From Myxococcales bacterium (lineage in GTDB: Bacteria > Myxococcota_A > Bradymonadia > REDH01): a stretch of DNA of 64,000 bases. A program made the translations under genes and the position numbers. Under the pieces are notes generated by a model, which worked only from the letters and a program-made list of their open reading frames with translations, was not told where the DNA came from and did not search any database. Positions 12,803 through 43,513 of this stretch are shown in pieces. The stretch spans positions 2,703-66,702 of the forward strand of contig CANMDT010000004.1 of NCBI GenBank assembly GCA_947496715.1, given 5' to 3'. Within the stretch, counting starts at the first letter, position 1. Each line of letters begins with the position of its first letter.

Positions 12803-12855
12803 GGTGGCTCCGGGTGCGAGGTGTGACCGAACGGTACGCCTCGCGATCTGCCTCT

Positions 12856-13857
12856 TCAAGTTTCATCGCGTTCCGCCGGTACGGCACCCTTGGTCGCGAT
12901 GAGCGACCAGGTGATGGAGATGGCAAGCGCAGAGACGATGAAAGCGAGCGAGAGGAGCGGGCTGATGTGGATCTCCTCGATACCCAGCTGCTCTCGGGCG
13001 AAGGTCTGCACGCTGGCAAACTCACCCCCATACTCCACGATCATCTTCGCGCCGACGAAGCAGAGGACGGCCGAGATGCCATACTTCACGTAGGCAAACC
13101 GGTCTACGGCGGCCGCGAGCAGGAAGAACATGGAGCGCAGGCCAAGGATGGCGAAGATGTTGGAGGTGAAGACCAGGAAGGGGTCCTTGGTCACGCCGAA
13201 GACCGCCGGAATCGAGTCGAGTGCGAAGACGACGTCGGTGAACTCGACGAGGATGAGGGTCATAAACAGGGGTGTCGCCACCCACTTGCCGGTGTCCTCC
13301 TCCTTCCAGAAAAAGCGGTGGCCGCGGAGGATGGGGGTGGAGGGTATGAAGCGCTGCAGGAGCCGCACCCAGCGCTGCGTGTCGGCGCCATCATCCGCGC
13401 CCTCCGATTTGAAGAGCAGTTTGCCGCCAGTGTAGAGCAGGAAGACGCCGAAGATGCCAATCAGCCAGTGGAACTGATTGAGGAGCGCCGCTCCTGCGAA
13501 GATCATGATGGCGCGCAGGATAAGCGCCGAGAGGATGCCCCAGAAGAGCACGCGGTGCTGCAGGGCCGGGGGAATCTTCATCGCCGAGAAGATGAGGATG
13601 AAGACGAACATGTTGTCCATCGAGAGCGACTGCTCGATGAGGTAGCCGGCCAGGAACTCGGTGCCGTACTGGTGGCCCTCAAAGTGCCAGAGGATGCCGC
13701 CAAAGATAAAGGCAAGCGACATCCAGACGGCTGTCCAACCCGCGGCCTCCTTGGCCCCCACGCGATGGGACTCCTTGTGGAAGAGGCCGAGGTCGATGGC
13801 GAGCATGACAAAGATGAAGGTGAGGAAGCCTCCCCACATCCAAGGCGTAACGTTCAT
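12856..13857 (-). CDS. TerC/Alx-family integral membrane protein
   Basis: MNVTPWMWGGF..VMLAIDL N-terminus typical of TerC/Alx, multiple TM helices. Alternative start 13875. Confidence 0.85.
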   Translation of the reverse strand: MNVTPWMWGGFLTFIFVMLAIDLGLFHKESHRVGAKEAAGWTAVWMSLAFIFGGILWHFEGHQYGTEFLAGYLIEQSLSMDNMFVFILIFSAMKIPPALQHRVLFWGILSALILRAIMIFAGAALLNQFHWLIGIFGVFLLYTGGKLLFKSEGADDGADTQRWVRLLQRFIPSTPILRGHRFFWKEEDTGKWVATPLFMTLILVEFTDVVFALDSIPAVFGVTKDPFLVFTSNIFAILGLRSMFFLLAAAVDRFAYVKYGISAVLCFVGAKMIVEYGGEFASVQTFAREQLGIEEIHISPLLSLAFIVSALAISITWSLIATKGAVPAERDET

Positions 13858-14051
13858 CGCGGGCGAAGCAATCATGGGAACACGGGGGGCAGAGGAGAGA
13901 GAGTGAGAGGTCTAGTCGGCAGCAGAGGGGCACGCACCTTTTTTGGCCTGCAACCGGTGCCAATGGGGGGACGGGATCCGGCCCACCGGGGCAGGGCGCG
14001 TCGATGGCAGTCGCCGTTCGCGGCCAAACTCTTGATTCTCGACGGGCGAAG

Positions 14052-27273: not shown

Positions 27274-27363
27274 TGTGACTGGCGGCACTGCGCCGCCTAC
27301 TTGCCTCCAGATCAGCGAAGCAATAGCGGGTTGGCATCAGTTCTTCTCTCGACGGAGTTGGCG

Positions 27364-30300
27364 ATGCCGACCTTCTTTTTGCCCCGCGCCTCCGGCGCTT
27401 CCTCGCTCCGAGCAACCCTGTTGCAACTCGTTCTGGCGTTGGCGCTCCTTGTGCCGGCAGCGGGACGAGCAGCGACCATCACAGTCGATACCCTGCTCGA
27501 CCCCGCGCTCGACCTTGCCTCGCCCACCTCGCTGCGTGAAGCAATCACGGCCGCAAACGCGCTCGCCGGCGACGACATCATCGACCTCCGCGGCCTCTCC
27601 GGTACGCTGGTGATCTCGCAGGCGACGGCGCTGCCCGCGATCACCTCTAACGTCCAGATCCTTGGTCCAGGTGCAGATGTGCTCACCGTAGACCGGACGA
27701 GCGCCACCGCCTTCGGTCTGCTCTCCATCAGCGCCGGGACCGTGTCGATTTCAGGCCTCAGACTCAGCCGCGGAAGCCGAGCAGATGGCGGAGCACTGCT
27801 GGTCTCGGGGGGCGCGGTCACAGTCACCGGCTGCCACCTCCTCAACAACGCCTCGACGGGCATCATCGCCACCTCAGGGGGCGGCGCCATCCGCCTCAAT
27901 GGGGGCACGCTGGCCCTCTCGCAGAGCACCGTCTCGGGCAGCGTGGCGGCACGCGCCGGCGGCGCCCTCTATCTTGCAGCGGGCACGGCGACGCTCACCA
28001 ATGTGACCCTCTCGGGGAACACCGCCACCACGGGCGGAGGCGTCAACATCGCCGACAATGTGGCTGCGATCTTTGCTGCCAACTTCTCCACCTTCGCGCT
28101 CAACGCCGGCGCGACGTCGAGTGGCCTGCTCAATGCAGGGCGCGGTAGCTGCAACGTGAACTCCGTTGCCATCACCGGCAACACCGGCGCTGCGCTGCAG
28201 GCCTCTGCATCTTGCACATCCATCCAGAGCTACCTCTCTGCCACAGGCGGGCTGCTCGGTGCGCTTGCTGCCAACGGTGGAACGACGCCCACCCACCTGC
28301 CCGCTGCGGGCAGCCCCCTGATTGATGCAGCCAGCGCTGTCGTCCTCATTGCCCAGGACCAGCGCGGCGCTGCCCGTCCGCTCGATGGCGACGGTGACGG
28401 CGTTGCTGCGCCCGACATTGGCGCGGTGGAGTTCGGTGCGGTGCCTGTCATCAACCTCGGCGGCGGCCCCGTCACCTACACCGAGAACCAGGCCGCAGTC
28501 GCGCTGGCAACCTCCGCCACCGTCACAGACGCCGACACGGCTGCGCTCGCCACCGGCCGCCTCTCGGTCTCCTATGCAGCGGCAGGCCTGTTGACCGACC
28601 AGCTCACGCTGGGTGCAGGCTCGGGCACCGGCGCAGTTACACTTGTGGGCACCTCGGTCCGGGTCGCCGGCGTTGCGGTTGGCACCCTCGCAGGTGGCGC
28701 CAACGGCGCAAACCTGACCATCGTATTCCACGCCGCCGCCACCCTCGCCAGGGTCAGCGCGGTGGTCTCTGCCATCTCCTTCGCCGCGACCGGCGACAAT
28801 CCCACACCCAGTGACCGGACCATCCGATACACGCTCACGGACGGGCAGGGCGGAACCAGCCGCACGGCAACACGGACCGTCACGGTCGTCGCTGTGAACG
28901 ACCCGCCCCGGCTGGTGGCCGGTGCCTACGCGGCGGGCGCAGAGAATGCGGTGATGACAATCCCGCTGACGCTCGCAGACCCCGACACGGCGGTAGGTTC
29001 GCTCACGCTCGATGCAGCGTCGCTCACGCCGGCGCTCATGGATGGCGCCAGCTTCCTCTTCACGGGAGCCGCCGCCGCCCGCACGCTCGACATCACCCCC
29101 ATCCTCAACGCCAATGGCAATGGCGTCGTGACCGTGACCGTTTCAGACGGCAGTGCGACGGCGACGCTCGACCTCCCCGTCACCTTTGTCGCTGTGAACA
29201 GCCCGCCGGTTGCCAACCCGCTGAGCATTACGGTCAACGAAGACGGCGCCCGCAGCTTCACGCTGACCGCCTCCGACCCCGACGGTGGCCTGCTCGCCTA
29301 CATCGTCCGCACGCCGCCCGCCCATGGCACACTCTCCGGGCTCCCACCCAACCTCGTCTATCGACCGGAGCCCGACTACTTCGGACCCGACACCATCTCC
29401 TTCCAGGTGGTGGATGATGCCGATGCGCTCTCCAACCGGGCAACCGTCACCATCAATGTCGTGGGTGTGAACGACGCACCCGTCGCGCTGGCCTCCTCGG
29501 TTGATACGACCGAAGACGCGCCAGCCTCATTCACCTTTGCCGCGACCGATGTGGACGGCGACCCGCTCACCTTCGTCCTCGATGCAACCCCGACGCTTGG
29601 CACCGTCACCGCCGTCGCCGGCTTGCAGGCGAACTTCGCGCCCGCCCCCACTCTCTCTGGCGAGGAGCAGGTTGCCTTTCATGTGACAGATGGCCGGCTC
29701 GACTCCGCCCCCTCGACCCTCACGCTCCGCGTCGCTGCTCTGAACGACCTCCCGGTTGCCGCGCCCCTCGGTGTGACCGTCCGCGAAGACAACGCGGTGA
29801 CCGTCGCGCTCGTCGGAACCGACGCGGAGGGCGATGCCGTCACCGTCCAGCTCGATGCGCAGCCAGCCCGCGGCTCGCTCGAGGTGGCCGCCTCAGGCGC
29901 CCCCAACTTCACCTACCGCCCCGATGCCGACTTTTTCGGCGCCGATAGCTTCACCTTCTCGCTCTGCGATGCCGCCGGCTGCGGCTCACCCGCCACCGTC
30001 TCGCTTACCGTTACACCGGTGAATGATGCGCCGGTCCTCGGGCTGGTGCCAGACGTAGATATGCTCGAGGACGGCTCTGCAACCTTCAGCCTTGCAGCAA
30101 CCGATGTGGATGGCGACCCGCTCACCTTCTCGGTGGTGACCGAGCCGAGCGATGGCACGCTGACGCTGGTCGACGCAGCGACGGGCGAACTGACATTTGC
30201 TCCTCCGGCCAACTTTGTCGGCACGCTCTCCTTCGCCTGGCAGGTCTCCGACGGCAGCGCGACGGCCGGGCCAGACACCGTCGAGATCCGGGTGGCGGCG

Positions 30301-31635
30301 GTGAACGACGACGACGACGGCGACACCATCCTCGACAACGACGATAACTGCCCGCTGCTCGCCAACACTGCGCAAGAAGACAACGACGGCGACGGGCAGG
30401 GCGACGCATGCGACGCCGACGACGATGGCGACGGACTGCCGGATGGCTCGGACAACTGCCCGCTCGTCAGCAACCCGACACAGGCCGACACAGACCGAGA
30501 CGGGGTGGGCGATCTCTGCGATGCCGACATCGATGGCGATGGAACGCCTGCCGTTGACGACTGCAACGATCGCGACCCTGCGATTGCGACCCCGCGGGGC
30601 TACTTCCTCGACCTCGACTTTGACGGCGTGGGTGAGGCCTCCTCCTCAGAGCAGTGCTCCGCCGCGGCGCCACCCGGCTTCTCCCCCCTCACCGGCGACA
30701 ACTGCGAGGGGCTCAGCAATCCCGAGCAGGCCGATGCCGATGGCGACGGTCTCGGCGACCCATGCGACCTCGACAACGACGGCGACGGGGTCACCGACGC
30801 TGCGGACAACTGCCTGGGCCTTGCAAACGCCAATCAGGCCAACCTCGACGGCGACAGGCTCGGCGACGCCTGCGACGACGACGTCGACGGCGACGGCCTC
30901 CCCAATGAGGCCGACAACTGCCCCGCCGCGGAGAACGCCATCCAGGCCGATGCCGACCTCGACGGGCTCGGCGATGTCTGCGACCCCGACGATGACGGCG
31001 ACGGCGTGCGAGATGGCAACGACAACTGCCCTTTGGTCGCCAACGCGGACCAGGCCGACAGCGACGGCGTTCCCCCCGGCGACGCCTGCGATGGCGACCT
31101 CGACGGTGACGGCGTCGCCGATGCCGACGATAACTGCCCCCGCGTAAGCAACGCAGATCAGCTCGACTTCGACGCAGACGCACTCGGCGATGTCTGCGAC
31201 CCCGACGACGACGGCGATGCACGGCTCGACAGCGTCGACGACTGCCCCTTTGAGCCGGCCGTCACCCCCACAGGTTGCCCCGCCGACGCCGATGTCATCG
31301 CCGACACGACCGTGGAGGACACGGGAGCCGACACGACCGTCGAAGACACCACCGACACCACTGTCGAAGACACGACCGACACGACCGTGGCGGACACCTC
31401 AGACATCTCCCTCGACACCACCGGTGACGGTGGCGCCGACGCCAACCCCGGCGACGGCATCGACTTCGATGCGCCCGGCGACGGCTCCGGCAACGGCGTC
31501 GACCTCCTCGACAGCTCCACCCGCGGCAAGTCCAAGTCCTCCGGTTGTGCCTGCTCCGCCGCTGGCGCGGCGCTCGACCCATCTTGGCTCCTCGTCGGCC
31601 TGGCACTTCTTCCGCTGCGCCGGCGGAGAAAGTAG
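27364..31635 (+). CDS. MYXO-CTERM-anchored adhesin-like protein: choice-of-anchor-Q-like beta-helix, six ~95-aa VNDAP tandem repeats, TSP type-3 Ca-binding repeats
   Basis: Signal peptide. SLREAITAANA…GAARPLDGDGDGVAAPDIGAVEF. Repeats ending VNDAP. D.D.DG.GD.CD.DDDGDG…DNCP…Q.D.D repeats. C-terminal SSGCACS..AALDPSWLLVGLALLPLRRRRK. Confidence 0.85.
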   Translation: MPTFFLPRASGASSLRATLLQLVLALALLVPAAGRAATITVDTLLDPALDLASPTSLREAITAANALAGDDIIDLRGLSGTLVISQATALPAITSNVQILGPGADVLTVDRTSATAFGLLSISAGTVSISGLRLSRGSRADGGALLVSGGAVTVTGCHLLNNASTGIIATSGGGAIRLNGGTLALSQSTVSGSVAARAGGALYLAAGTATLTNVTLSGNTATTGGGVNIADNVAAIFAANFSTFALNAGATSSGLLNAGRGSCNVNSVAITGNTGAALQASASCTSIQSYLSATGGLLGALAANGGTTPTHLPAAGSPLIDAASAVVLIAQDQRGAARPLDGDGDGVAAPDIGAVEFGAVPVINLGGGPVTYTENQAAVALATSATVTDADTAALATGRLSVSYAAAGLLTDQLTLGAGSGTGAVTLVGTSVRVAGVAVGTLAGGANGANLTIVFHAAATLARVSAVVSAISFAATGDNPTPSDRTIRYTLTDGQGGTSRTATRTVTVVAVNDPPRLVAGAYAAGAENAVMTIPLTLADPDTAVGSLTLDAASLTPALMDGASFLFTGAAAARTLDITPILNANGNGVVTVTVSDGSATATLDLPVTFVAVNSPPVANPLSITVNEDGARSFTLTASDPDGGLLAYIVRTPPAHGTLSGLPPNLVYRPEPDYFGPDTISFQVVDDADALSNRATVTINVVGVNDAPVALASSVDTTEDAPASFTFAATDVDGDPLTFVLDATPTLGTVTAVAGLQANFAPAPTLSGEEQVAFHVTDGRLDSAPSTLTLRVAALNDLPVAAPLGVTVREDNAVTVALVGTDAEGDAVTVQLDAQPARGSLEVAASGAPNFTYRPDADFFGADSFTFSLCDAAGCGSPATVSLTVTPVNDAPVLGLVPDVDMLEDGSATFSLAATDVDGDPLTFSVVTEPSDGTLTLVDAATGELTFAPPANFVGTLSFAWQVSDGSATAGPDTVEIRVAAVNDDDDGDTILDNDDNCPLLANTAQEDNDGDGQGDACDADDDGDGLPDGSDNCPLVSNPTQADTDRDGVGDLCDADIDGDGTPAVDDCNDRDPAIATPRGYFLDLDFDGVGEASSSEQCSAAAPPGFSPLTGDNCEGLSNPEQADADGDGLGDPCDLDNDGDGVTDAADNCLGLANANQANLDGDRLGDACDDDVDGDGLPNEADNCPAAENAIQADADLDGLGDVCDPDDDGDGVRDGNDNCPLVANADQADSDGVPPGDACDGDLDGDGVADADDNCPRVSNADQLDFDADALGDVCDPDDDGDARLDSVDDCPFEPAVTPTGCPADADVIADTTVEDTGADTTVEDTTDTTVEDTTDTTVADTSDISLDTTGDGGADANPGDGIDFDAPGDGSGNGVDLLDSSTRGKSKSSGCACSAAGAALDPSWLLVGLALLPLRRRRK
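31309..31400 (+). repeat. short coding tandem repeat (DTTVEDT units) near adhesin C-terminus
   Basis: gacacgaccgtsgaagacacs periodicity. Confidence 0.6.
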
Positions 31636-31716: not shown

Positions 31717-33753
31717 ATGTCCAGCGAAGCTGTTGCCTCTGCGCCCCATGGTGCGCTCCCCAATCTCGCTGAGGTTCCGGAAGAGATTCGGGACCAAGTC
31801 TGGCTCGACACCTACTATCAGGGCGACTCCGTCAGGCAGCTGACGGTCCGCGCCGTCGTCATGGGCTCCATCCTCGGCATGATGATGTCGCTCTCCAACC
31901 TCTACATCGGTCTCAAGACCGGTTGGGGCCTGGGCGTCGCAATCACCTCCTGCATCCTCTCCTACGCCATCTGGACCGTCTTCTTGAAGTTCGGCTGGGC
32001 CAAGCAGCCCATGTCGATCCTCGAGAACAACTGCATGCAGTCCACCGCGACCAGCGCGGGCGTCTCGACGGGCGGAACCATGGTCTCCGCCATCGCGGCG
32101 CAGCTCATGCTGACCGGCGTCCACATGAACTGGAAGGTCCTCATGGCCTGGACGGCCTTCCTGGCCTTCCTCGGCGTCTCGATGGCCATCCCCATGAAGC
32201 GCCAGCTCATCAACCGCGAGCAGCTCAAGTTCCCCAGCGGCATCGCCGCCGCAGAGACGCTCCGCAGCCTCCACGCCGCCGGCGGAGAGGCGCTCATCAA
32301 GGCCCAGGCCCTCTTCTGGTCCATGGGCATCGGTGCGGTGCTCCAGTGGTGGCAGAGCGGCATGGGCGGTCTGGTGCAAACAATGCTTTCGCCCAGTGAG
32401 AAAGTTGCACCGCTCGGTGCTCTTGTCATGCAATGGGGTCCGATGCCGAAGATATCCAGCATGCTTCAGTCGCTGGGGCTATCCGCGGAGAGCATTCGGT
32501 TCCCCCTCACGCTCCCGATGGAGCTCGAACTTCATGCGAAGCTCTTCGGAAAGGACGTCTCGAAGCTCGGATTCGTCTTCCCCGTCGACCCCCTCATGAC
32601 GGCGGCCGGCATGATTGTCGGCATGCGCACCTCGCTCTCGATGGTCATCTCGGGCTTCGCCCTCTTTGGAATCGTTGGCCCCTGGCTCGATGACTCCGGC
32701 GTACTCCGCGAGATGCACGCCTCCGGTGCCCTCTCCTCTGCGACGCTCTCGGGCAGCGCCATCCGCAAGTGGGGCCTCTGGACCGGCTCCTCCATGATGG
32801 TTGCTGCCGGCCTTACCGCGGCGCTCTTCCAGTGGAAGTCCATGCTGGCCGGCATCTCCAAGCTCGGCGCGCTCTTCTCCGGCAAGAAGCAGGTTGCTGC
32901 GCACGACCCCATCGCTCACATCGAGGTCCCCAACTCCTGGTTCGTCATCGGCACCGGCATCTCGGGCCTTGGCTGCATCATCATCATGTATACCGAGTGG
33001 GACATCCCGCTCCACTGGGGCATCGTCGCCGTCGCGATGGCCTTCGTGCTCTCGCTCGTCGCCTGCCGCGCCACGGGTGAGACCGACACCACGCCCATCG
33101 GCGCCATGGGCAAGGTCACGCAGCTCTTCTACGGCGCCATGATCCCCAACCAGCCCATCCCCAACCTGATGACGGCCGGCGTGACCGCCGGCGCCGCCGG
33201 CGCCGCCGCCGACCTCCTTACCGACCTCAAGAGCGGCTACCTCCTCGGCGCCAACTCGCGCCAGCAGACCATCGCGCAGAGCATCGGCATCATCAGCGGC
33301 ACGCTCGCCATCGTTCCTGCCTGGTACCTTTTCGTCCCCGACGCCAGCGCCCTCGGCACCGCCCAGTTCCCCGCCCCGGCCGCCGAGGTCTGGAAGAGCG
33401 TCGCCGAGCTGCTCAGCCGCGGCATCTCGACCATGCACCCGACCATCCTCAAGGGCATCATCTTCGGCGGTTCGCTCGGCTTCCTCCTCACACTCACAGA
33501 GGGCCTCGCCCCCAAGAAGTTCCGGAGCTACCTGCCCTCCGCCACAGGCCTCGGCCTCGGCATGGTCATCCCCTTCGGTAACAGCTTCTCCTTCCTCCTC
33601 GGCGCGCTCATCACGCTCATCTGGACCAAGCTGAACGAGGCCTCCTGCGAGCAGAAGATGGTCCCCATCGCATCGGGCATCGTCGCCGGTTGCAGCCTCA
33701 TGGCGGTCTTCATCATGATCCTGCAGGCCGCCGGGTTGCTCCCGCTCGGGTAG
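31717..33753 (+). CDS. OPT-family oligopeptide transporter
   Basis: Polytopic membrane protein with N-terminal …SNLYIGLKTGWGLGV… and C-terminal …MVIPFGNSF…, typical of the OPT family. Confidence 0.85.
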   Translation: MSSEAVASAPHGALPNLAEVPEEIRDQVWLDTYYQGDSVRQLTVRAVVMGSILGMMMSLSNLYIGLKTGWGLGVAITSCILSYAIWTVFLKFGWAKQPMSILENNCMQSTATSAGVSTGGTMVSAIAAQLMLTGVHMNWKVLMAWTAFLAFLGVSMAIPMKRQLINREQLKFPSGIAAAETLRSLHAAGGEALIKAQALFWSMGIGAVLQWWQSGMGGLVQTMLSPSEKVAPLGALVMQWGPMPKISSMLQSLGLSAESIRFPLTLPMELELHAKLFGKDVSKLGFVFPVDPLMTAAGMIVGMRTSLSMVISGFALFGIVGPWLDDSGVLREMHASGALSSATLSGSAIRKWGLWTGSSMMVAAGLTAALFQWKSMLAGISKLGALFSGKKQVAAHDPIAHIEVPNSWFVIGTGISGLGCIIIMYTEWDIPLHWGIVAVAMAFVLSLVACRATGETDTTPIGAMGKVTQLFYGAMIPNQPIPNLMTAGVTAGAAGAAADLLTDLKSGYLLGANSRQQTIAQSIGIISGTLAIVPAWYLFVPDASALGTAQFPAPAAEVWKSVAELLSRGISTMHPTILKGIIFGGSLGFLLTLTEGLAPKKFRSYLPSATGLGLGMVIPFGNSFSFLLGALITLIWTKLNEASCEQKMVPIASGIVAGCSLMAVFIMILQAAGLLPLG

Positions 33754-35948: not shown

Positions 35949-36809
35949 ATGCGCCGCGACCGCACCTTCCTTGCCTCCACGCCCTTCACGCGCAGCGACT
36001 ACGCCAGCATCGTGCAGACCACCTACCCGGGTGCCCACGACGGAGACTACCGAAGCCGCGTCAAGGCGCTCGTCGCACAGGCAGAGGCCTCTTGGCCCGC
36101 CTGCCCTCGCTTCTCCTACACAGAACAGGAGCATGGAAACTGGAGCCTCGTCTCACAGATCCTCATCCTGCTCCAAGACCGCTACTCCTGCGCCCCCTTC
36201 CTCCATGGTCGCGAGCTGCTGCAGCTCTCCCTCGACACCATCCCGCAGCTCGACGATGTCAGCGCACGCATGGAGTCCATCACGGGGTTCATGCTCGCAC
36301 CCGTCGGCGGGCTCCTCGACAAGGGCGAATTCCTCGCCATGCTCGCGCAGAAGGTGATGCGCTGCACCCCCTACATCCGACACCCATCCTATCCCTTCTT
36401 CACGCCTGAGCCCGACATCATCCACGAGCTCCGCGGCCATGCACCCATGTTCCTGCACCCAGAATTCGTAGAGATGTCGGTCCGCATCGGTCGCGCCGCC
36501 GGGCGTGCCGTAGAGACGGGCGACCAGAAGATGCTCGACCTCATCGGGCTCTTCTACTGGTACACCGTGGAGTATGGGCTGGTGAAGCAGGACGGCGAAG
36601 TGAAGATCTTCGGCGCCGGCAACAACGGCGGCATCCAAGACCTCCTGCGCTCCATCGACCCGACCATCGAGCACCGCCCCTTCTCGCTCGATGCGGTCCG
36701 CGATCTTTCCATCGACTACGATGCCCCGCAGGACCTCTTCTTCGTCGCAGAGTCCTTCGAGCAGGTGCTCGACTACGCCGACCAGCTTGTCACCGCCGCG
36801 CACGCCTGA
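35949..36809 (+). CDS. phhA: phenylalanine 4-hydroxylase (bacterial aromatic amino acid hydroxylase)
   Basis: PEPDIIHELRGHAP iron-binding motif, LFYWYTVEYGL…IFGAGNNGG. Confidence 0.85.
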   Translation: MRRDRTFLASTPFTRSDYASIVQTTYPGAHDGDYRSRVKALVAQAEASWPACPRFSYTEQEHGNWSLVSQILILLQDRYSCAPFLHGRELLQLSLDTIPQLDDVSARMESITGFMLAPVGGLLDKGEFLAMLAQKVMRCTPYIRHPSYPFFTPEPDIIHELRGHAPMFLHPEFVEMSVRIGRAAGRAVETGDQKMLDLIGLFYWYTVEYGLVKQDGEVKIFGAGNNGGIQDLLRSIDPTIEHRPFSLDAVRDLSIDYDAPQDLFFVAESFEQVLDYADQLVTAAHA

Positions 36810-36818
36810 GGCGACGCA

Positions 36819-37703
36819 CTACGGGAAGGGGCCGCCGGAGCACTCGCCGTCGAGGCAGGACTCCTGATGCAGCCCAACGCTGCCCGCGCCGACAATGACG
36901 TAGGCCGCCGCTGTCGGAGGCGCGGCGCCGCCGCAATAGACAGGTGACCGTGTTGCCACAGCCAAACCAGTAGGCGTGCTGAAGACTCCCTGAACCGTCA
37001 GCGCCGGGTTGTCTGATTGCGTCACCTGGGCCACTACCTCGATGCTCCAGTCGATGTCGGTGATCGCGGTGGCGGGGTCCATGCAGGGGAGCATCGCGCG
37101 GAGCTCTGCCTCGGTCGTGGCAACGGCAAACGAGGTGCCGCTGTCAAAGGTCATCATGCAGCTGTCTGGGGTGGTCCAGAGCCGATAGGGCTGCGCGGTG
37201 GCCGGATCGTAGACTCCGCATGGATCGCAGACCGAGCGCTGCGACGCGGGTGCGATGCCGAGGCAGCCCATGTAGCAGCTGTTGCAGTAGAGGTTTCCGT
37301 CGGTTCCGCAGATCTGGAACTCGGGGGCAGGGCAGCCAACGCCGCAGCCGAACAGGCAGTCATCCACATCCACGTCGGTGTCGTCGACGTTGGTGTCGGC
37401 GGTGTCGTCGACCGTGGTATCGGCGGTGTCATCGACCGTGGTGTCGGCGGTGTCGTCGACGTTGGTGTCGGCGGTGTCGTCGACCGTGGTATCGGCAGTC
37501 TCGTCAACGTTGGTGTCTGCGGTGTCATCAACGTTCGTGTCGGCGGTGTCATCAACCGAGGTGTCGGCGGTGTCATCAACCGAGGTGTCGGCGGTATCCG
37601 AAGCTCCGCTCCCCTCCGTATCACCCGCCGGCAGCTCCACGGTCTCTTCGGCCACACAGGCGGCCAGCGCCAGCATCCAAACACTCAAAACAACTGTGCG
37701 CAT
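36819..37703 (-). CDS. lipoprotein with 10x (DDTADT[SNT]V) acidic tandem repeat and a Kazal-like Cys domain
   Basis: Lipobox LALAAC (ATG 37703). …CPAPEFQICGTDGNLYCNSCYMGC… resembles Kazal PVCG(S/T)DG.TY.N.C. Confidence 0.65.
   Translation of the reverse strand: MRTVVLSVWMLALAACVAEETVELPAGDTEGSGASDTADTSVDDTADTSVDDTADTNVDDTADTNVDETADTTVDDTADTNVDDTADTTVDDTADTTVDDTADTNVDDTDVDVDDCLFGCGVGCPAPEFQICGTDGNLYCNSCYMGCLGIAPASQRSVCDPCGVYDPATAQPYRLWTTPDSCMMTFDSGTSFAVATTEAELRAMLPCMDPATAITDIDWSIEVVAQVTQSDNPALTVQGVFSTPTGLAVATRSPVYCGGAAPPTAAAYVIVGAGSVGLHQESCLDGECSGGPFP
37370..37610 (-). repeat. 24-bp coding tandem repeat x10 (DDTADTxV) inside Kazal-like lipoprotein gene
   Basis: gtcgtcgacgttggtgtcggcggt-type units repeated. 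Confidence 0.8.
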
Positions 37704-37752
37704 CGCAGACCTCCAACTCGTTTCGGAGGTCACTCTCGCCGCCATCATCATC

Positions 37753-38421
37753 TCAGTCAACCACGGTCGGCGCCTCGCCCTCTTGGCCCTTGGTCAGGAT
37801 GCGCATGAAGTCGTTTCGGCTCATCTCCTTGGCACCCAGCGAGGCGAGGTGCTCGTTGTGAACCTGGCAGTCGATCAGGTCGAAACGGCGCTCAAAGAGG
37901 ATCCGCTGCATCTCGAAGAAGGCGAACTTCGAGGCGTCCGACTCCGTGTGAAACATCGACTCGCCCGAGAAGACCTTGCCGGTCGCCAATCCGTAGAGCC
38001 CGCCCACCAGTTTGCCCTCTCGCCAGGTCTCGAAACTGTGGGCAATGCCCTGCTTGTGAAGCTCGGTGTAGACATGCCGGATCTTCGGCGAGATCCAGGT
38101 GCCGGGTTGCCCCTCGCGTGGCACCTTCGAGCACATCTTGATGACCTCCGCGAAGGCCGTGTTGATGCGCAGTTCAAACCTCCCTGAGGTTAGAATCTTT
38201 CGCATGCTCCGCGAGATGTTCGCGCCGCCCGGCCGAAGCACCATGCGCTTCGCCGGCGCGTACCACAGAAGCATGCGGCCCGACGGCCAGGGGAAGATGC
38301 CTTCACGGTAGGCTGCGGCGACGCGGTCTGGGTCGAGGTCGCCACCGAATGCGAGTGTGCCGTCACGGTCGGCTCGGTCGACCGGCGGAAAGATATGTTC
38401 AGGTCCAAGCTGGTATGGCAT
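37753..38421 (-). CDS. aat: leucyl/phenylalanyl-tRNA--protein transferase
   Basis: Full-length L/F-transferase-like sequence (…YREGIFPW…, …WISPKI…, GESMFH). Confidence 0.85.
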   Translation of the reverse strand: MPYQLGPEHIFPPVDRADRDGTLAFGGDLDPDRVAAAYREGIFPWPSGRMLLWYAPAKRMVLRPGGANISRSMRKILTSGRFELRINTAFAEVIKMCSKVPREGQPGTWISPKIRHVYTELHKQGIAHSFETWREGKLVGGLYGLATGKVFSGESMFHTESDASKFAFFEMQRILFERRFDLIDCQVHNEHLASLGAKEMSRNDFMRILTKGQEGEAPTVVD

Positions 38422-38512
38422 CGTACTTCAAGGTTGCGGGAGCGGAGCGAAGCGGCCAAGACTGGCCCCAGACTCCACCCTACACACATTGGAGTCTCCC
38501 TCTCTCACAAAG

Positions 38513-40573
38513 ATGCAGGCGATGACGATGGGGTCCCCCAATTTGCCCGGTCATGGGCGCGTTTCTACCAACCTCGCATGGCTCGTCGCCGGTCTGCTCC
38601 TGCTCGCGGGCTGTCGATCTTCGTCCGACACGGCAGCTCCCTCCGCTGCGCCAGCCGCGCAGCTCGTAGACCCCACCGCCCGCCCCATCGTTGTGGCACC
38701 ACTCCGCGGCGAGCGCCCTGACAGCTGGATCCGCTCGCTCCCCGAACGGCCGGCCATCGTCCTCGCGGTCGACCTCCGCTCGCTCATGGCTACCGTCATC
38801 GACGGCCCCTGGAACCTGCTCGGCCTCTCTCAGGACCGGTATGCCGGTGCTGTCGCAAAGTGGGTCGGCAAGTTCGACAGCCGCCCCGACCTGGCGAACG
38901 CCGTCAAGCAGCTCCGCTGGGAGGCCGCCTCGACCGTCGTCCTCGCCGCATGGGGCGCAGAGAAGGGCGGGGCAGAGAGCACACTCCTGCTCACCGAGCC
39001 CGCTGCGCTCGACCTCCCGCTCCGCGATGGCGGCCCGCCCGCTTCGCTCACCAACACCCGCTTCCGCGCAGCGCTGCGGGGCGGCCAACTCCTTGTCGGC
39101 GACGGCCCGGCCTTCGAGGCGGCGCTTGCAGTGCATGCCGGTTTCAACCCCGAGGCACGCTGGCCCGAGGGCTGGGCCAAGCTCCCCGCAAAGGCCTTCG
39201 CCACCCTCTGGCTCGACCCCTCCGTCCCCGCACCCAAGTCCCTCGCCGAGCTCCAGAAGGGCCACCAGCTCATCGCCGCCGGCCTCTCCTCCGACGGCAG
39301 CGCGATCCTTCTCCACAGCGCACAGCAGCCCTGGCTTGCACCCGCAACAGCCCGCGGCTTTGAGATGGGGCGTTCGCTCATCGAGTCACAGCGGGTCGAC
39401 GCGACGCCTACCAGCAAGCCCCTCTGGGACTACGCCGACCTCCTCCATCGGGCCATCTGGTCACGCGTCGCGCTCTCCACCGACGGCGGCGTAGAGCAGC
39501 TCCGACTCCTCCCGCCAGCCTGCGGAAATGCCGCAAACAACCTCACCATCGCGGCCATCGTCGCCACCCTCATTCAGCGCTCCTCGCTCGGACCGCTCCC
39601 CGCCGGCCCCTTCGTTACCCCGACTGTCCGACTGCAGGACGACTGCTCCGGCATCGCCGGGCCTGCACCCCGCCTGCCCCGCTCGCTCGTCTCGCTCGCC
39701 TCCGCAGAGACAAAGGGCGGCGCCCTCTTCCTCCTCGCCGACAGTGGCGCGCTGCTTCGAGCTCACCTTCCCAGCCTCTTCGGTCTGCTCCCATTCACCC
39801 TCCACACCGACGAACTCACCCATGCGCTTGGCGCCAACCCCTTCGGCCTCCGCGGCTGGGGCGACAGCGAGGGCTCCGGCGCTTTTTTCATCGAGCAGGC
39901 CACAAATGCCAGCGTCGCCGTTCTCCACCCGGGCGCGGCCGAGCTCCCCTGGGTCAAGTCGCTGACGGCCGGCCTCGACACTGCCACCGACAAGCGTCGC
40001 GGCTGGATTGCAGCCCGCGGCGAACCCTCCATCGCAACGCGGCTCGCAGCCCCGCCCTCGCCGGCCAGCAGCTGGAGCCGCGGCGCTACGCTGCCGCCCG
40101 CCGACGCCCTCCTCGCGCTCATGCTCAACCGCACCTACCTCGCCGCCATCGTCTCCTACGCGGCCCGCCCCGACCTGCAGCAGGCCCTCGCCCGCGCGGA
40201 GGTCGTCGCCTTCTCGCTCCGCGCCGACCTCTCGCCCGTGCTCTCGGTCTGGCTCCCCACGGGCGCAGCCGACGCAGCTTCGCTCCTCCATGACGCCGTC
40301 CAGGAGGGCGTCGCCAAGGCCACGCACAGCGCCGACGAGGAGGGCTCTGCAGGCGCCACCGTCGCCGACGCCCTCAAGCTCGTCACGGTAGAGGCGCTCG
40401 ACGACCACCGCCTCCAGCTCTCGCTCTCGCGCGGAGGCCCCTTCGTCATGGCGGCGGCTGCCATGCTCGCAGCTCCCATCGTCGCAGAGGTCTACGGCCT
40501 GGCAGGCCGCATCAGCGCAGCGGCGGTCGCGCCCAAGGCCGCAAAGCCTCCGGCACCGCCTACCCGCCCCTAG
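38513..40573 (+). CDS. Ala-rich lipoprotein of unknown function
   Basis: Lipobox LLLAGC after ATG 38513 (track start 38357 would overlap aat). High GC3. Confidence 0.6.
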   Translation: MQAMTMGSPNLPGHGRVSTNLAWLVAGLLLLAGCRSSSDTAAPSAAPAAQLVDPTARPIVVAPLRGERPDSWIRSLPERPAIVLAVDLRSLMATVIDGPWNLLGLSQDRYAGAVAKWVGKFDSRPDLANAVKQLRWEAASTVVLAAWGAEKGGAESTLLLTEPAALDLPLRDGGPPASLTNTRFRAALRGGQLLVGDGPAFEAALAVHAGFNPEARWPEGWAKLPAKAFATLWLDPSVPAPKSLAELQKGHQLIAAGLSSDGSAILLHSAQQPWLAPATARGFEMGRSLIESQRVDATPTSKPLWDYADLLHRAIWSRVALSTDGGVEQLRLLPPACGNAANNLTIAAIVATLIQRSSLGPLPAGPFVTPTVRLQDDCSGIAGPAPRLPRSLVSLASAETKGGALFLLADSGALLRAHLPSLFGLLPFTLHTDELTHALGANPFGLRGWGDSEGSGAFFIEQATNASVAVLHPGAAELPWVKSLTAGLDTATDKRRGWIAARGEPSIATRLAAPPSPASSWSRGATLPPADALLALMLNRTYLAAIVSYAARPDLQQALARAEVVAFSLRADLSPVLSVWLPTGAADAASLLHDAVQEGVAKATHSADEEGSAGATVADALKLVTVEALDDHRLQLSLSRGGPFVMAAAAMLAAPIVAEVYGLAGRISAAAVAPKAAKPPAPPTRP

Positions 40574-41910
40574 TTGCCCGAACCGGAACCCTCGCCGCAG
40601 TCTTCAGGCGGCGCCGGGATCTGCTCGGCATCGTTGCAGGCATCGGCGAGGAAGGTGGCCGAGAGGAAGTCGGTCGCCCGCTGGAAGGCAAAGGTCGAGG
40701 GCGCCAGGCTCAGACTGATGGGCTCGCTCGCCTGGCCGGTCACGTTGCCGCAGGCAAAGTTGCTGTCGCGGAAGCTGGCATCCACAAAGTTGATGTCGGC
40801 GAGGATGTCGCGGCCCGTGAGTGAGTTGGCCTCGCCCACGATGCGCAGCCCGGCAACCGTGAGGTTGAAGCTTCGGTCGTCGCCGATGGTCACGCCGGTC
40901 ACCACGATGGCCGCGCCAACGGGCTCCCGCGCCCCGGTCGGCCGCGGGGTGCGGCTGCCGTCGTCGGCGATGATGTCGTCGGTCGCCAGCGGCTGGAAGG
41001 TGAAGGAGTAGTTGCCCGAGCCGTCGGCCGCGACCTCGGTGGAGATCAGCAGCGGGTGTTCATCGCGACGATCGAGCGGAAACACATTCACGCCGAGCAG
41101 GTAGGTGCCAACCGCCTCGAAGGGGGCGGGCGTGCAGCCCTCGCAAATCTCCGCCGGAGCCGGAATCTCTGCTGCGTCGTTGCAGTTGTCGGCCAGGAAG
41201 GTGGCAGAGAGGAAGTCTGTCGTCCGCTGGAAGGCGAAGGTCGAGGGCGCGAGGCTCAGGCTGATGGGCTCGCTGGCCTGTCCGGTCACATCGCCACAGG
41301 CGAAGTTGCTGTCGCGGAAGGTAGCATTGACGAAGTTGATGTCGGCAAGGATGTCGCGGCCGGTGAGCGAGTTGGCCTCGCCCACGACGCGCAGCCCGGC
41401 AACCGTGAGGTTGAAGCTCCGGTCGTCGCCGATGGTCACGCCAGATACCACGATGGCGGTACCAACGGGCGCGCGGGCGCCGGTCGTCCGCGGCGAGCGG
41501 CTGCCGTCGTCGGCGATGATGTCGTCGGTGGCCAGCGGCTGGAAGGTGAAGGTGTAGGAGCCCGAGCCGTCCGCTTCGATCTCTGTCGAGATAAGAAGCG
41601 GATGTTCGTCGCGACGGTCGAGCGGGAAGACATTCACGCCCAGCAGGTAGGTGCCGACGGGATCGAAGGGAGCCGGCGTGCAGGTCACGCCGCTGCCCGA
41701 GCCCGAGCCCGTATCGGCGCCCGTGTCGATGGTCGTATCGCCGTTGCCGCTGTCCTGCGCCGCGTCGGCTGCCGCCGCAGCACGGGCCTCATCGAACTCC
41801 CCAAGCCGCCCCTCAGGGTCGGGCGTCGTACAGCCGGTGAGCGCGCTCACGACGGAGAGCAGCAGCGCAAAGAGGGAAGGAGTCAAAGCAGTCGCAACGC
41901 GCAGATTCAT
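40570..41910 (-). CDS. lipoprotein containing two ~93%-identical 177-aa domains (recent internal tandem duplication)
   Basis: Lipobox SALTGC (ATG 41910). Two copies of CTPAPF..VGTYLLGVNVFPLDRRDEHPLLISTE…FACG.VTGQASEPISLSLAPSTFAFQR.TDFLSATFLAD.CNDA. Confidence 0.7.
   Translation of the reverse strand: MNLRVATALTPSLFALLLSVVSALTGCTTPDPEGRLGEFDEARAAAAADAAQDSGNGDTTIDTGADTGSGSGSGVTCTPAPFDPVGTYLLGVNVFPLDRRDEHPLLISTEIEADGSGSYTFTFQPLATDDIIADDGSRSPRTTGARAPVGTAIVVSGVTIGDDRSFNLTVAGLRVVGEANSLTGRDILADINFVNATFRDSNFACGDVTGQASEPISLSLAPSTFAFQRTTDFLSATFLADNCNDAAEIPAPAEICEGCTPAPFEAVGTYLLGVNVFPLDRRDEHPLLISTEVAADGSGNYSFTFQPLATDDIIADDGSRTPRPTGAREPVGAAIVVTGVTIGDDRSFNLTVAGLRIVGEANSLTGRDILADINFVDASFRDSNFACGNVTGQASEPISLSLAPSTFAFQRATDFLSATFLADACNDAEQIPAPPEDCGEGSGSGN
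40590..41655 (-). repeat. 531-bp direct tandem duplication (2 copies, ~90% nt identity) inside lipoprotein gene
   Basis: Track ORFs 40574..41011 and 41105..41557 translate to near-identical peptides. Real-frame protein shows two 177-aa copies. Confidence 0.8.
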
Positions 41911-42010
41911 GGCATGCCTCGGCGGCGGGTGTATCGCGCTGCATCGCACAGTTCTTGACGAACTGCAAAACAACGCGGAAGGTTCGACCGCTCTTGGAGA
42001 CTCCCGCAAC

Positions 42011-42027
42011 GGGTCTCTGCGAGACCC
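42011..42027 (+). promoter_or_regulatory. perfect 17-bp palindrome GGGTCTCtgcGAGACCC in the divergent intergenic region, 20 nt upstream of FadL-like start
   Basis: Read directly. Same 7+3+7 geometry as the 24103 hairpin. Confidence 0.4.
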
Positions 42028-42046
42028 TCTGTCGCTACGGAACCAC

Positions 42047-43513
42047 ATGACGAACTCCGTCCTCTCTCGCACCCTGGCCTCTATCTCGCTCCTCGGCCTC
42101 GCCGCAGTGGCGCTCCCGCAAACCGCCAGCGCGAGCGGCTTCGCAGTGGCCCGTTTCGGCGGCGCCCACGGCAACCCCGTCGATAGCCACCCCGCCTCCA
42201 TCTACTACAACCCCGCAGGCCTTCTCGGGCAGGCTGGCCAGCGCTATTACCTCGACGTCACCTGGGCCCAGCGCAACGCCACCTACGAGCGCGACCTCGA
42301 CGGCACGGTTCAAGACAATATCCGTGCCGACGACCCCGCGCTCTTGGCCGCCAACGGCGGCACCGGCACCCTCTCCAACCAGGTCATCTCGCCCATGTTC
42401 GGCGCGAGCGGCAACATCAACCCCAACTTCGCCTGGGGCGCCGGCTTCTTCGTCCCGTTCGGTGGTGCCGCCGCCTGGGACAAGGTCGACGCCAACGCCC
42501 CCAACCCCTACCCCGGCGCCATCGACGGCCCGCAGCGCTGGTTCACCATCGACGGCACCCTCAAGACCATCGGTGTCGCTGTCGGCGGCGCCCAGCGCTT
42601 GCCCGCCGCCCACCTCACGCTCGGCCTCTCCGCCAACCTCTACCAGACCTCCATCGACACCCTCCGCGCCCGCGTCTCGGCCAACACGGACGACGTCTAC
42701 AACGAGGGCCGAAGCCGCATCGACGCCAAGGGCATCGACTGGGGTATCGGCGCAGGCCTCATCTGGGAGCCCCGCCCGAACGACCTCTGGGTCGGCCTCA
42801 GCTACCAGTCACGCCCCAACCTCAACGGCGAGATGGTCCTCAACGGCGAGCTCACCAACGTGTTTGGCGACGAGCCCGAGGTGAACAAGGTCATCCTCAC
42901 ATCGACGCTCCCCGACGTCATCCGGCTCGGATTCAAGAAGCGGATCAACGGTCGCGACGAACTCCGCCTCTTCGGCGACTTCACCCGCTGGAGCACCTTC
43001 GACCAGCAGTGCCTGGTCAACGAAGATGTCCTCGATGGCGCCGACCCCTTCAAGTTCTGCGCCACCAACCCTGACGGCTCGGCTGTCAACCCGGCGAACG
43101 AGCCACGGATCGCCGTCAACCTCTTCCGCCGATGGGAAGATGCATGGGGCGTCCGCTCGGGCTACTCCCACTACCTTGCTGACGGCACCGAGCTCTTCGC
43201 CGACCTCGGCTACGATGCCAACGCCGTCCCCGATACCGCCCTCGAGCCCTCGCTCATGGACATGGACAAGGTCAGCGCCGGCCTAGGCGCCACCTTCGCC
43301 CTCATGCCCACGCTCGACATCTCGGTCTCCGCCAACAACATCTTCTACGCCGACCGCTCCACCAAGGCGTCGGACTTCGACGCTCCCACCGACCCGAGCA
43401 AGAGCCCCAATCCCGCGGGCGACTTCGCCCAGAACGTCTTCTTCATCAACGTGGGCCTGCTCTACCACACGGCCCCGACGGTCGCAGCGGCCGTGACGGC
43501 AGAAGACCTCTAA
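42047..43513 (+). CDS. outer-membrane beta-barrel transporter, FadL/OmpP1/TodX-like
   Basis: Signal peptide …ALPQTASA/SGFAVARFGGAHGNP…SIYYNPAGL typical of the family. C-terminal aromatic-rich beta strands. Confidence 0.7.
   Translation: MTNSVLSRTLASISLLGLAAVALPQTASASGFAVARFGGAHGNPVDSHPASIYYNPAGLLGQAGQRYYLDVTWAQRNATYERDLDGTVQDNIRADDPALLAANGGTGTLSNQVISPMFGASGNINPNFAWGAGFFVPFGGAAAWDKVDANAPNPYPGAIDGPQRWFTIDGTLKTIGVAVGGAQRLPAAHLTLGLSANLYQTSIDTLRARVSANTDDVYNEGRSRIDAKGIDWGIGAGLIWEPRPNDLWVGLSYQSRPNLNGEMVLNGELTNVFGDEPEVNKVILTSTLPDVIRLGFKKRINGRDELRLFGDFTRWSTFDQQCLVNEDVLDGADPFKFCATNPDGSAVNPANEPRIAVNLFRRWEDAWGVRSGYSHYLADGTELFADLGYDANAVPDTALEPSLMDMDKVSAGLGATFALMPTLDISVSANNIFYADRSTKASDFDAPTDPSKSPNPAGDFAQNVFFINVGLLYHTAPTVAAAVTAEDL

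Follow-up and report, generated by a model that had tools for sequence, protein, structure and literature searches.

A predicted lipoprotein of a Myxococcales bacterium joining an eight-cysteine Kazal homologue to a C-terminal domain without a PDB fold neighbour on an acidic repeat stalk

The 64,000-nucleotide stretch of Myxococcales bacterium DNA analysed here (contig CANMDT010000004.1, positions 2,703 to 66,702; hereafter the window) encodes, downstream of aat, a predicted lipoprotein whose cysteine cluster is a divergent Kazal homologue and whose C-terminal domain recurs in a family of bacterial proteins. In the proposed explanation, a lipidated Cys16 would anchor the exported protein in a membrane, and an acidic, repeat-built tether of roughly 100 residues, evolutionarily variable in length, would project a compact, disulfide-locked head. 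This head would consist of two modules, namely, a divergent 8-cysteine Kazal homologue with the three canonical disulfides and a putative fourth, and a 135-residue, 6-cysteine, beta-rich C-terminal domain. By analogy with modules of the follistatin/SPARC type, the head would most likely be a protease-resistant protein-binding unit of the periplasm or cell surface, with the C-terminal domain as its core and the Kazal-like module as an accessory binding element or rigid spacer, a reading to which a probability of about 0.55 is given. The most plausible partner of the head would be a protease because of the other modules that keep company with Kazal-like ones, and the Kazal-like module would then engage it by something other than the textbook standard mechanism. 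We infer the disulfide connectivity, the cellular location, and the binding function of the head.

Kazal domains are textbook protease inhibitors of animals, oomycetes, and apicomplexans. The cysteine cluster, CPAPEFQICGTDGNLYCNSCYMGC, matches exactly the one quoted in an earlier reading made from the sequence alone (the sequence-only reading), in which its spacing was said to resemble that of Kazal-type inhibitors. Searches and model comparisons carry this claim further, indicating that the cluster is a true Kazal homologue and goes beyond similar spacing. A single-sequence search against all PDB chains retrieved Kazal inhibitors only (SPI-1, LDTI, dipetalin, infestin, rhodniin, and PSTI), with a best E value of 0.001. 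When a profile of 22 homologues was compared with the PDB by hmmsearch, rhodniin was matched at E 2.6e-4 and all matches with E<1 were Kazal inhibitors; the sole two non-Kazal rows had E>1 and lay outside the Kazal-like module. Alignment of the 8-cysteine modules with 123 canonical modules by hhalign gave a probability of 97.9% (E 4.7e-13, 45 columns), a test that is not fully independent because the canonical set was gathered with the family profile itself, while Pfam independently confirms the set as Kazal. The same profile, searched exhaustively against 1.8 billion representative proteins, reached canonical multi-Kazal proteins at about 1e-10, and Pfam confirmed these with E values down to 1e-126. 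The AlphaFold2 model of the module has the short central helix on a small antiparallel sheet that characterizes the Kazal fold, and over 32-39 residues it lies within 1.2-2.9 Å of rhodniin, SPI-1, silk protease inhibitor 2, OMTKY3, and follistatin, with 1.2-1.7 Å for the superposition on the Kazal inhibitors. In sequence, the cysteines C120, C124, C132, C143, C147, and C159 correspond to C1-C6 of LDTI and SPI-1 and are invariant in the 22 homologues, the motif C3-G-[ST]-D-G-x-T-Y-x-N-x-C4 reads CGTDGNLYCNSC, and the spacing C1-x3-C2-x7-C3-x10-C4-x3-C5-x11-C6 is, except at C1, the "non-classical" pattern of LDTI.

The Pfam models, which the sequence-only reading had named as the check, did not reach their gathering scores on the window copy, with 16 bits for Kazal_1 (PF00050; cut-off 21) and 15.4 bits for Kazal_2 (PF07648; cut-off 22.8), and the matches spanned only profile positions 5-33. 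Sister 8-cysteine modules do exceed the Kazal_2 cut-off (P0029, 35.5 bits; P0038, 28.2; P0046, 25.6; P0056, 25.3). A Pfam/NCBIfam scan of the whole protein yielded only these sub-threshold Kazal matches and noise (Haemadin at E 0.074, PFF1_TM, and SepX/GlpR on the acidic repeats). The remark that Kazal domains are rare in bacteria was only partly right, as the exhaustive search turned up dozens of representative bacterial proteins with such modules. Literature searches on bacterial or myxobacterial Kazal proteins returned no description of this module or of a bacterial Kazal domain.

The 217 Kazal-pattern modules taken from the profile-search matches fell into two clean classes. The canonical class (110 of the 123 modules lacking an extra cysteine) shows C1-x-C2 spacing, no extra cysteines, a variable P1 residue (R/K/Q/L), and I/E/D/N at P1'. 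The other class, comprising 94 modules and including that of the window, shows C1-x3-C2 spacing, an extra cysteine right after the conserved Tyr, Ala at P1 (76%), and Pro at P1' (90%). A second extra cysteine, eight residues before C2, accompanies the first in 91 of these 94 modules, and this co-occurrence suggests that the N-terminal cysteine and the one following the Tyr form a fourth disulfide. In the window module this would be C116-C140, beside the expected canonical pairs C120-C147, C124-C143, and C132-C159 (pattern 1-5/2-4/3-6). The subtype is, on sequence comparison, a previously undescribed 8-cysteine Kazal lineage of metagenome-assembled genomes (MAGs) labelled Myxococcales, Bradymonadia, or "Deltaproteobacteria".

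The equivalent of the Kazal reactive-site loop (Table 1) aligns gap-free with the LDTI loop C6-P-K8-I9...C14. Besides Ala at P1 and Pro at P1', the 94 modules share Pro at P2 (83%), Glu at P2' (63%), and Phe or Tyr at P3' (71%). Among the 22 homologues, G121, V122, G123, C124, A126, E128, and C140 are invariant and P125, P127, F129, and N141 nearly so; in the orthologue group of the window, little or no variation is seen at positions P6-P3', P14', and P15', with the contact position P14' taken by the extra Cys140.

These features bear on whether the protein could be a canonical tethered Kazal inhibitor. Its C-P-A-P-E-F segment would then occupy the active site of a serine protease, with P1 Ala directed at an elastase- or subtilisin-like enzyme, and the protein would shield the envelope against foreign proteases and against those that the bacterium, possibly a predator, secretes itself. 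The true Kazal homology and fold speak for this possibility, as do the C2-C3 loop length of 7, the Cys at P3, and Asn141 at P15', all as in functional non-classical inhibitors such as LDTI. In addition, relatives join Kazal-like modules with pacifastin-like inhibitor modules, and the host lineage is related to Myxococcales and Bradymonadia, groups with known predators. However, a Pro at P1' generally suits the standard mechanism of serine-protease inhibition very badly, since S1 and S8 proteases take it very poorly at this position, and it ranks among the worst P1' residues in variants of the ovomucoid third domain. Furthermore, of their 12 contact positions, bona fide Kazal inhibitors conserve only the P3 Cys and the P15' Asn, the other 10 being hypervariable (PMC1236909). 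The window module has neither such hypervariable contacts nor a favourable P1-P1' pair, as its loop is conserved and carries Ala126-Pro127; its P14' contact is an extra, probably disulfide-bonded cysteine, and no protease gene lies beside the family members examined. The near-invariant contact loop, together with the P1' Pro, makes canonical protease inhibition doubtful, and the conserved residues suggest that the module probably does not act as a textbook protease inhibitor. The sequence-only reading had proposed a tethered protease inhibitor; its lipobox, its stalk, and its Kazal homology stand, while canonical inhibition, although possible, is not favoured in view of the frozen P2 Pro, P1 Ala, and P1' Pro, and we regard it as unlikely.

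Turning to the second module of the head, the C-terminal domain had been described as beta-rich, and the prediction of seven strands and one short helix agrees with this. Its AlphaFold2 model has a pLDDT of 91.1 and a pTM of 0.84, and the domain has no match in Pfam or NCBIfam. The six cysteines, the YCGGAAPP motif, and the end tail were seen in an alignment of 45 diverse copies. Three disulfides would be expected within residues 162-288, one of them possibly C182-C207, as P0071 lacks both of these cysteines. The domain was found in 100 proteins: 52 have it alone, 39 have a single Kazal-like module before it, 7 have two, and 2 have three, and it ends the protein in every case. Several of the lone-domain proteins are complete, measure 130-170 aa, and carry their own lipoprotein signal. 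A word-indexed homologue search with the alignment of the domain returned only 6 proteins. In proteins P0030, P0034, and P0040, and at the Myxococcales/Bradymonadia loci L010-L012, pacifastin-like modules are present as well and score above the Pfam cut-off. The best explanation of these architectures would be that the C-terminal domain is an independent module that defines the family and is probably functional alone in many relatives. A possible link of the domain to DUF4377, seen in 2 of 111 relatives, was dropped, as P0142 has a Kazal-like module and lacks the C-terminal domain, which makes it uninformative for that domain.

Larger paralogues (L010, 3242-4018; L011, 6457-7269; L006, 781-1566) contain pacifastin-like modules, Kazal-like modules, and the C-terminal domain, and share a conserved N-terminal "C.VIEEGFL" region. 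They are directly preceded by a protein of about 260 aa that overlaps or abuts their start and has a borderline HTH_23 score (21-24.4 bits against a cut-off of 24.6). The HTH-like protein and the larger paralogue may form a conserved two-gene unit, one that is absent from the window. A relative from outside the window, P0109, has an N-terminal Kazal-like module and also matches, weakly and below threshold, the peptidase-propeptide-type inhibitor domain PepSY and the T6SS immunity protein Tli3; this is a faint hint that Kazal-like modules travel with inhibitor or immunity domains.

It is also conceivable that the C-terminal domain is itself of an inhibitor or immunity type, acting against another envelope-attacking enzyme, such as a protease of a different class or a lytic enzyme, and that the Kazal-like and pacifastin-like modules add specificities to what would be a multi-headed defensive lipoprotein. 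Such a protein would be akin to the small periplasmic lipoprotein inhibitors of Gram-negative bacteria. The occurrence of the domain as a small lipoprotein on its own in many genomes, its invariable position at the very C-terminus, its conserved surface-type motifs (YCGGAAPP, NP, and the C-terminal GPPxP), and its fusion, in the architectures seen, to cysteine-rich modules of the inhibitor type and to nothing else would all fit such a role. However, no conserved neighbour points to a cognate enzyme, and this reading is considered quite improbable. A broader proposal, offered tentatively, is that the C-terminal domain has a new fold and is the hallmark of a new family of binding or inhibitor proteins tethered to the envelope, seen so far in MAGs labelled Myxococcales, Bradymonadia, or Deltaproteobacteria, and that it has recruited its own 8-cysteine Kazal lineage (fixed Pro-Ala-Pro-Glu-Phe loop) together with pacifastin-like modules.

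Several observations weigh against the protein-binding head with an accessory Kazal-like module. The co-occurrence of Kazal and pacifastin modules would fit true multi-headed inhibitors equally well, and the strictly conserved loop could reflect a single conserved protease target and not a non-inhibitory role. A conserved gene partner or a nearby protease was sought in nine sets of contexts, and none was common to the gene of the window; no protease gene was adjacent to family members in any context examined. Every relative that carries a name is called a "hypothetical protein", and the C-terminal domain has no fold neighbour among PDB structures, the expression "no known fold" covering the PDB only.

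Comparison with known systems places the Kazal-like module closest to the non-classical Kazal inhibitors of family I1 (LDTI, rhodniin, infestin, dipetalin, and horseshoe-crab SPI-1), which give the best sequence and fold matches. With the LDTI type it shares the C2-x7-C3-x10-C4-x3-C5-x10/11-C6 spacing, the C-G-[ST]-D-G-x-x-Y-x-N-x-C motif, Pro at P2, and Asn at P15'. It differs in having C1-x3-C2 instead of C1-x-C2, two extra cysteines, one of them at P14', and a conserved P1 Ala and P1' Pro where the LDTI type has a variable P1; moreover, the protein of the window is bacterial, predicted to be lipid-anchored, fused to an unrelated domain, and below the Pfam cut-off. The non-inhibitory modules of the follistatin type (follistatin, FSTL1/3, SPARC/BM-40) were among the fold matches (2arp, 3b4v, 6jza, 1bmo). 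Like the window module, they are arranged in tandem with further cysteine-rich modules, as rigid units for binding or spacing, and their contact loop lacks the diversification of inhibitors; unlike it, they are eukaryotic and have other flanking domains and another set of extra cysteines. The same profile also retrieves bacterial multi-Kazal proteins such as P0107, P0124, and P0149, which bear type IX secretion sorting domains; they too are bacterial and secreted, and they match Kazal_1 and Kazal_2 strongly. However, they show the canonical C1-x-C2, no extra cysteine pair, a variable P1 (R/K/Q/L), and no C-terminal 6-cysteine domain. Pacifastin-like domains, an animal-type small disulfide-rich inhibitor module of putative function, have been reported in Myxobacteria and CPR genomes in the relevant passages of PMC13388995 (2026). 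Such bacterial modules adjoin Kazal-like modules in relatives of the window protein, which itself has none, and those passages describe neither the 8-cysteine Kazal subtype nor the C-terminal domain.

The locus belongs to a coherent bacterial Kazal-like lineage with a putative fourth disulfide and a frozen loop, combined with pacifastin-like modules and a confidently modelled, unmatched C-terminal fold, in a host group with predatory bacteria among its members. A head that binds proteases would provide a new kind of self-protection at the surface or in the periplasm, whereas a head that does not would be the bacterial equivalent of Kazal-like modules without inhibitory function in animal matrix proteins. 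Should the tentative new-fold family hold, two "animal-type" inhibitor scaffolds would have diversified and been put to use inside bacteria, possibly with non-standard target recognition. The 8-cysteine lineage with its frozen loop, joined to an uncharacterised domain, forms a clean, well-defined family with a possible new fold, and in either case it would be worthwhile to solve the structure of the C-terminal domain and to curate it as a family. The practical value is moderate, the basis being metagenome sequences and predictions.

Between the lipobox and the head lies the stalk, described in the sequence-only reading as highly acidic and repetitive. Its composition (37% Asp+Glu, 28% Thr+Ser, and no Lys or Arg) agrees with that description, as does Tandem Repeats Finder, which reported a 24-bp tandem array at 37376-37595 (9.2 copies, 86% matches, score 272) and also a 72-bp super-period. 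The count of ten octapeptide repeats given earlier was slightly generous, since at the protein level 8 strict D[DE]T[ATSGD]DT[STNAI][VIL] octads are accompanied by 2 imperfect ones, an N-terminal variant (SDTADTSV) and a degenerate end (DDTDVDV). The suggestion to look for repeat-number polymorphism proved fruitful: the stalk ranges from 70 to 108 residues between orthologues that are at least 89% identical in the folded part. The stalk is probably disordered. At loci L003, L004, and L005, compared with 35949-40573 of the window, the lipoprotein diverges much faster than its neighbours (its identity is 69%, whereas aat has 90%, phhA 91%, and the 686-aa protein beyond aat 79%), and much of this divergence falls in the stalk.

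The gene itself is well delimited. Homologues (25 found, down to 37% identity) and the invariance of all 14 cysteines after the lipobox cysteine in the 22 that were aligned indicate that the 294-aa reading frame is real; overlapping plus-strand open reading frames (ORFs) were set aside as ordinary artefacts of high GC (about 66% in the window). The ATG at 37703 is the likely start because a GGAGG sequence lies upstream and the homologues with a complete N-terminus agree, nearly all of them opening with MR(T/A/S/K). The N-terminus, MRTVVLSVWMLALAAC, has a short positive n-region and a hydrophobic h-region followed by L13-A14-A15-C16, which fits the lipobox pattern [LVI][ASTVI][GAS]C. The lipobox recognized in the sequence-only reading is upheld, with Cys16 nearly invariant in the 22 aligned homologues and the same pattern shared by many family members. 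We infer that the protein is exported and lipidated at Cys16. Its close relatives come from freshwater "delta proteobacterium" MAGs, for instance from Lake Erken, and the more distant ones from Myxococcales and Bradymonadia MAGs.

Table 1. Coordinates of the predicted lipoprotein, its parts, and the adjacent genes (positions in the window)
Feature	Position	Strand or orientation	Details
Lipoprotein coding sequence	36819..37703	(-)	294 aa; stop codon 36819-36821; from ORF list, translation, and homologues
Shine-Dalgarno-like GGAGG	37710..37714	(-)	6 nt 5' of the ATG at 37703; read from sequence
Signal peptide, residues 1-16	37656..37703	(-)	lipobox L-A-A-C, residues 13-16, 37656-37667; predicted lipidation at Cys16
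Acidic Thr-rich low-complexity stalk, residues 17-115 (99 residues)	37359..37655	(-)	DDTADTxV octads
8-cysteine Kazal-like module, residues 116-159	37227..37358	(-)	Ca-x3-C1-x3-C2-x7-C3-x7-Ce-x2-C4-x3-C5-x11-C6
Equivalent of the Kazal reactive-site loop	37308..37334	(-)	C124-P-A-P-E-F-Q-I-C132; P3 Cys, P2 Pro, P1 Ala126, P1' Pro127
C-terminal 6-cysteine domain, residues 160-294 (135 residues)	36822..37226	(-)	motif Y-C-G-G-A-A-P-P; tail C-x-x-G-x-C-x-G-P-x-P
aat (leucyl/phenylalanyl-tRNA--protein transferase)	37753..38421	(-)	Leu_Phe_trans 8e-68; TIGR00667 188.5 bits, cut-off 143.55; probably outside the system
phhA-like gene (phenylalanine-hydroxylase-like)	35949-36809	convergent, downstream	Biopterin_H 9e-58

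The interval 36819-38421 given in the sequence-only reading covers the lipoprotein gene and aat together and not the lipoprotein alone. Its observation that the two genes are co-oriented and separated by 49 bp (37704-37752), with the lipoprotein gene downstream, is confirmed. A scan for promoters and terminators found no sigma-70-like promoter, and no terminator-like site in the gap between aat and the lipoprotein gene; the sole hairpin found, a terminator-like one at 36944-36964 (-) inside the lipoprotein coding sequence, was judged to be due to chance. As the same-strand gap holds no terminator-like site, the suggested co-transcription with aat is plausible. Relatives with 69-88% identity across the whole protein also share the order aat, lipoprotein gene, phhA, which could suggest that the lipoprotein and aat form a functional or co-regulated two-gene unit. 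However, a 47%-identical orthologue retains the phhA neighbour and has a different upstream gene in place of aat, and more distant members lie in unrelated neighbourhoods, so that the aat adjacency is lost in all examined relatives below 69% identity. Moreover, aat works on cytoplasmic proteins in the N-degron pathway, while the lipoprotein is predicted to be exported and is rich in disulfides. A functional link is thus unlikely, since the adjacency is confined to close relatives, and aat was rejected as a functional partner on synteny; the adjacency is probably incidental, and a genuine two-gene unit appears highly improbable.

On the other side, 9 nt separate the end of the phhA-like gene from the stop codon of the lipoprotein gene (36809-36821), which leaves no room for separate terminators. 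Divergent from aat, a gene at 38513-40573 (+) encodes a 686-aa predicted lipoprotein (…LLLLAGC…) that has no Pfam/NCBIfam match and is 79-93% conserved in syntenic relatives. A further predicted lipoprotein (…LLSVVSALTGC…), at 40570-42201 (-) with a probable start at 41874, contains two tandem, nearly identical copies of a domain of about 190 residues (CTPAPF..VGTYLLGVNVFPLDRRDEHPLLISTE…FLAD.CNDA); the protein has no Pfam match and only noise in NCBIfam, and this looks like a recent internal duplication in a secreted protein of an unassigned family. Farther away, a cadherin-like/Big_9 repeat protein of roughly 1,400 aa and an OPT-family oligopeptide transporter, at 27301-31635 (+) and 31717-33753 (+), were provisionally assigned by position and synteny with loci L003 and L021. 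Finally, GC skew in the window is positive before about 14 kb and then negative, changing sign at about 12000-14000 with a cumulative peak of about 0.69. Such a change might reflect reversed gene orientation or a landmark of replication.

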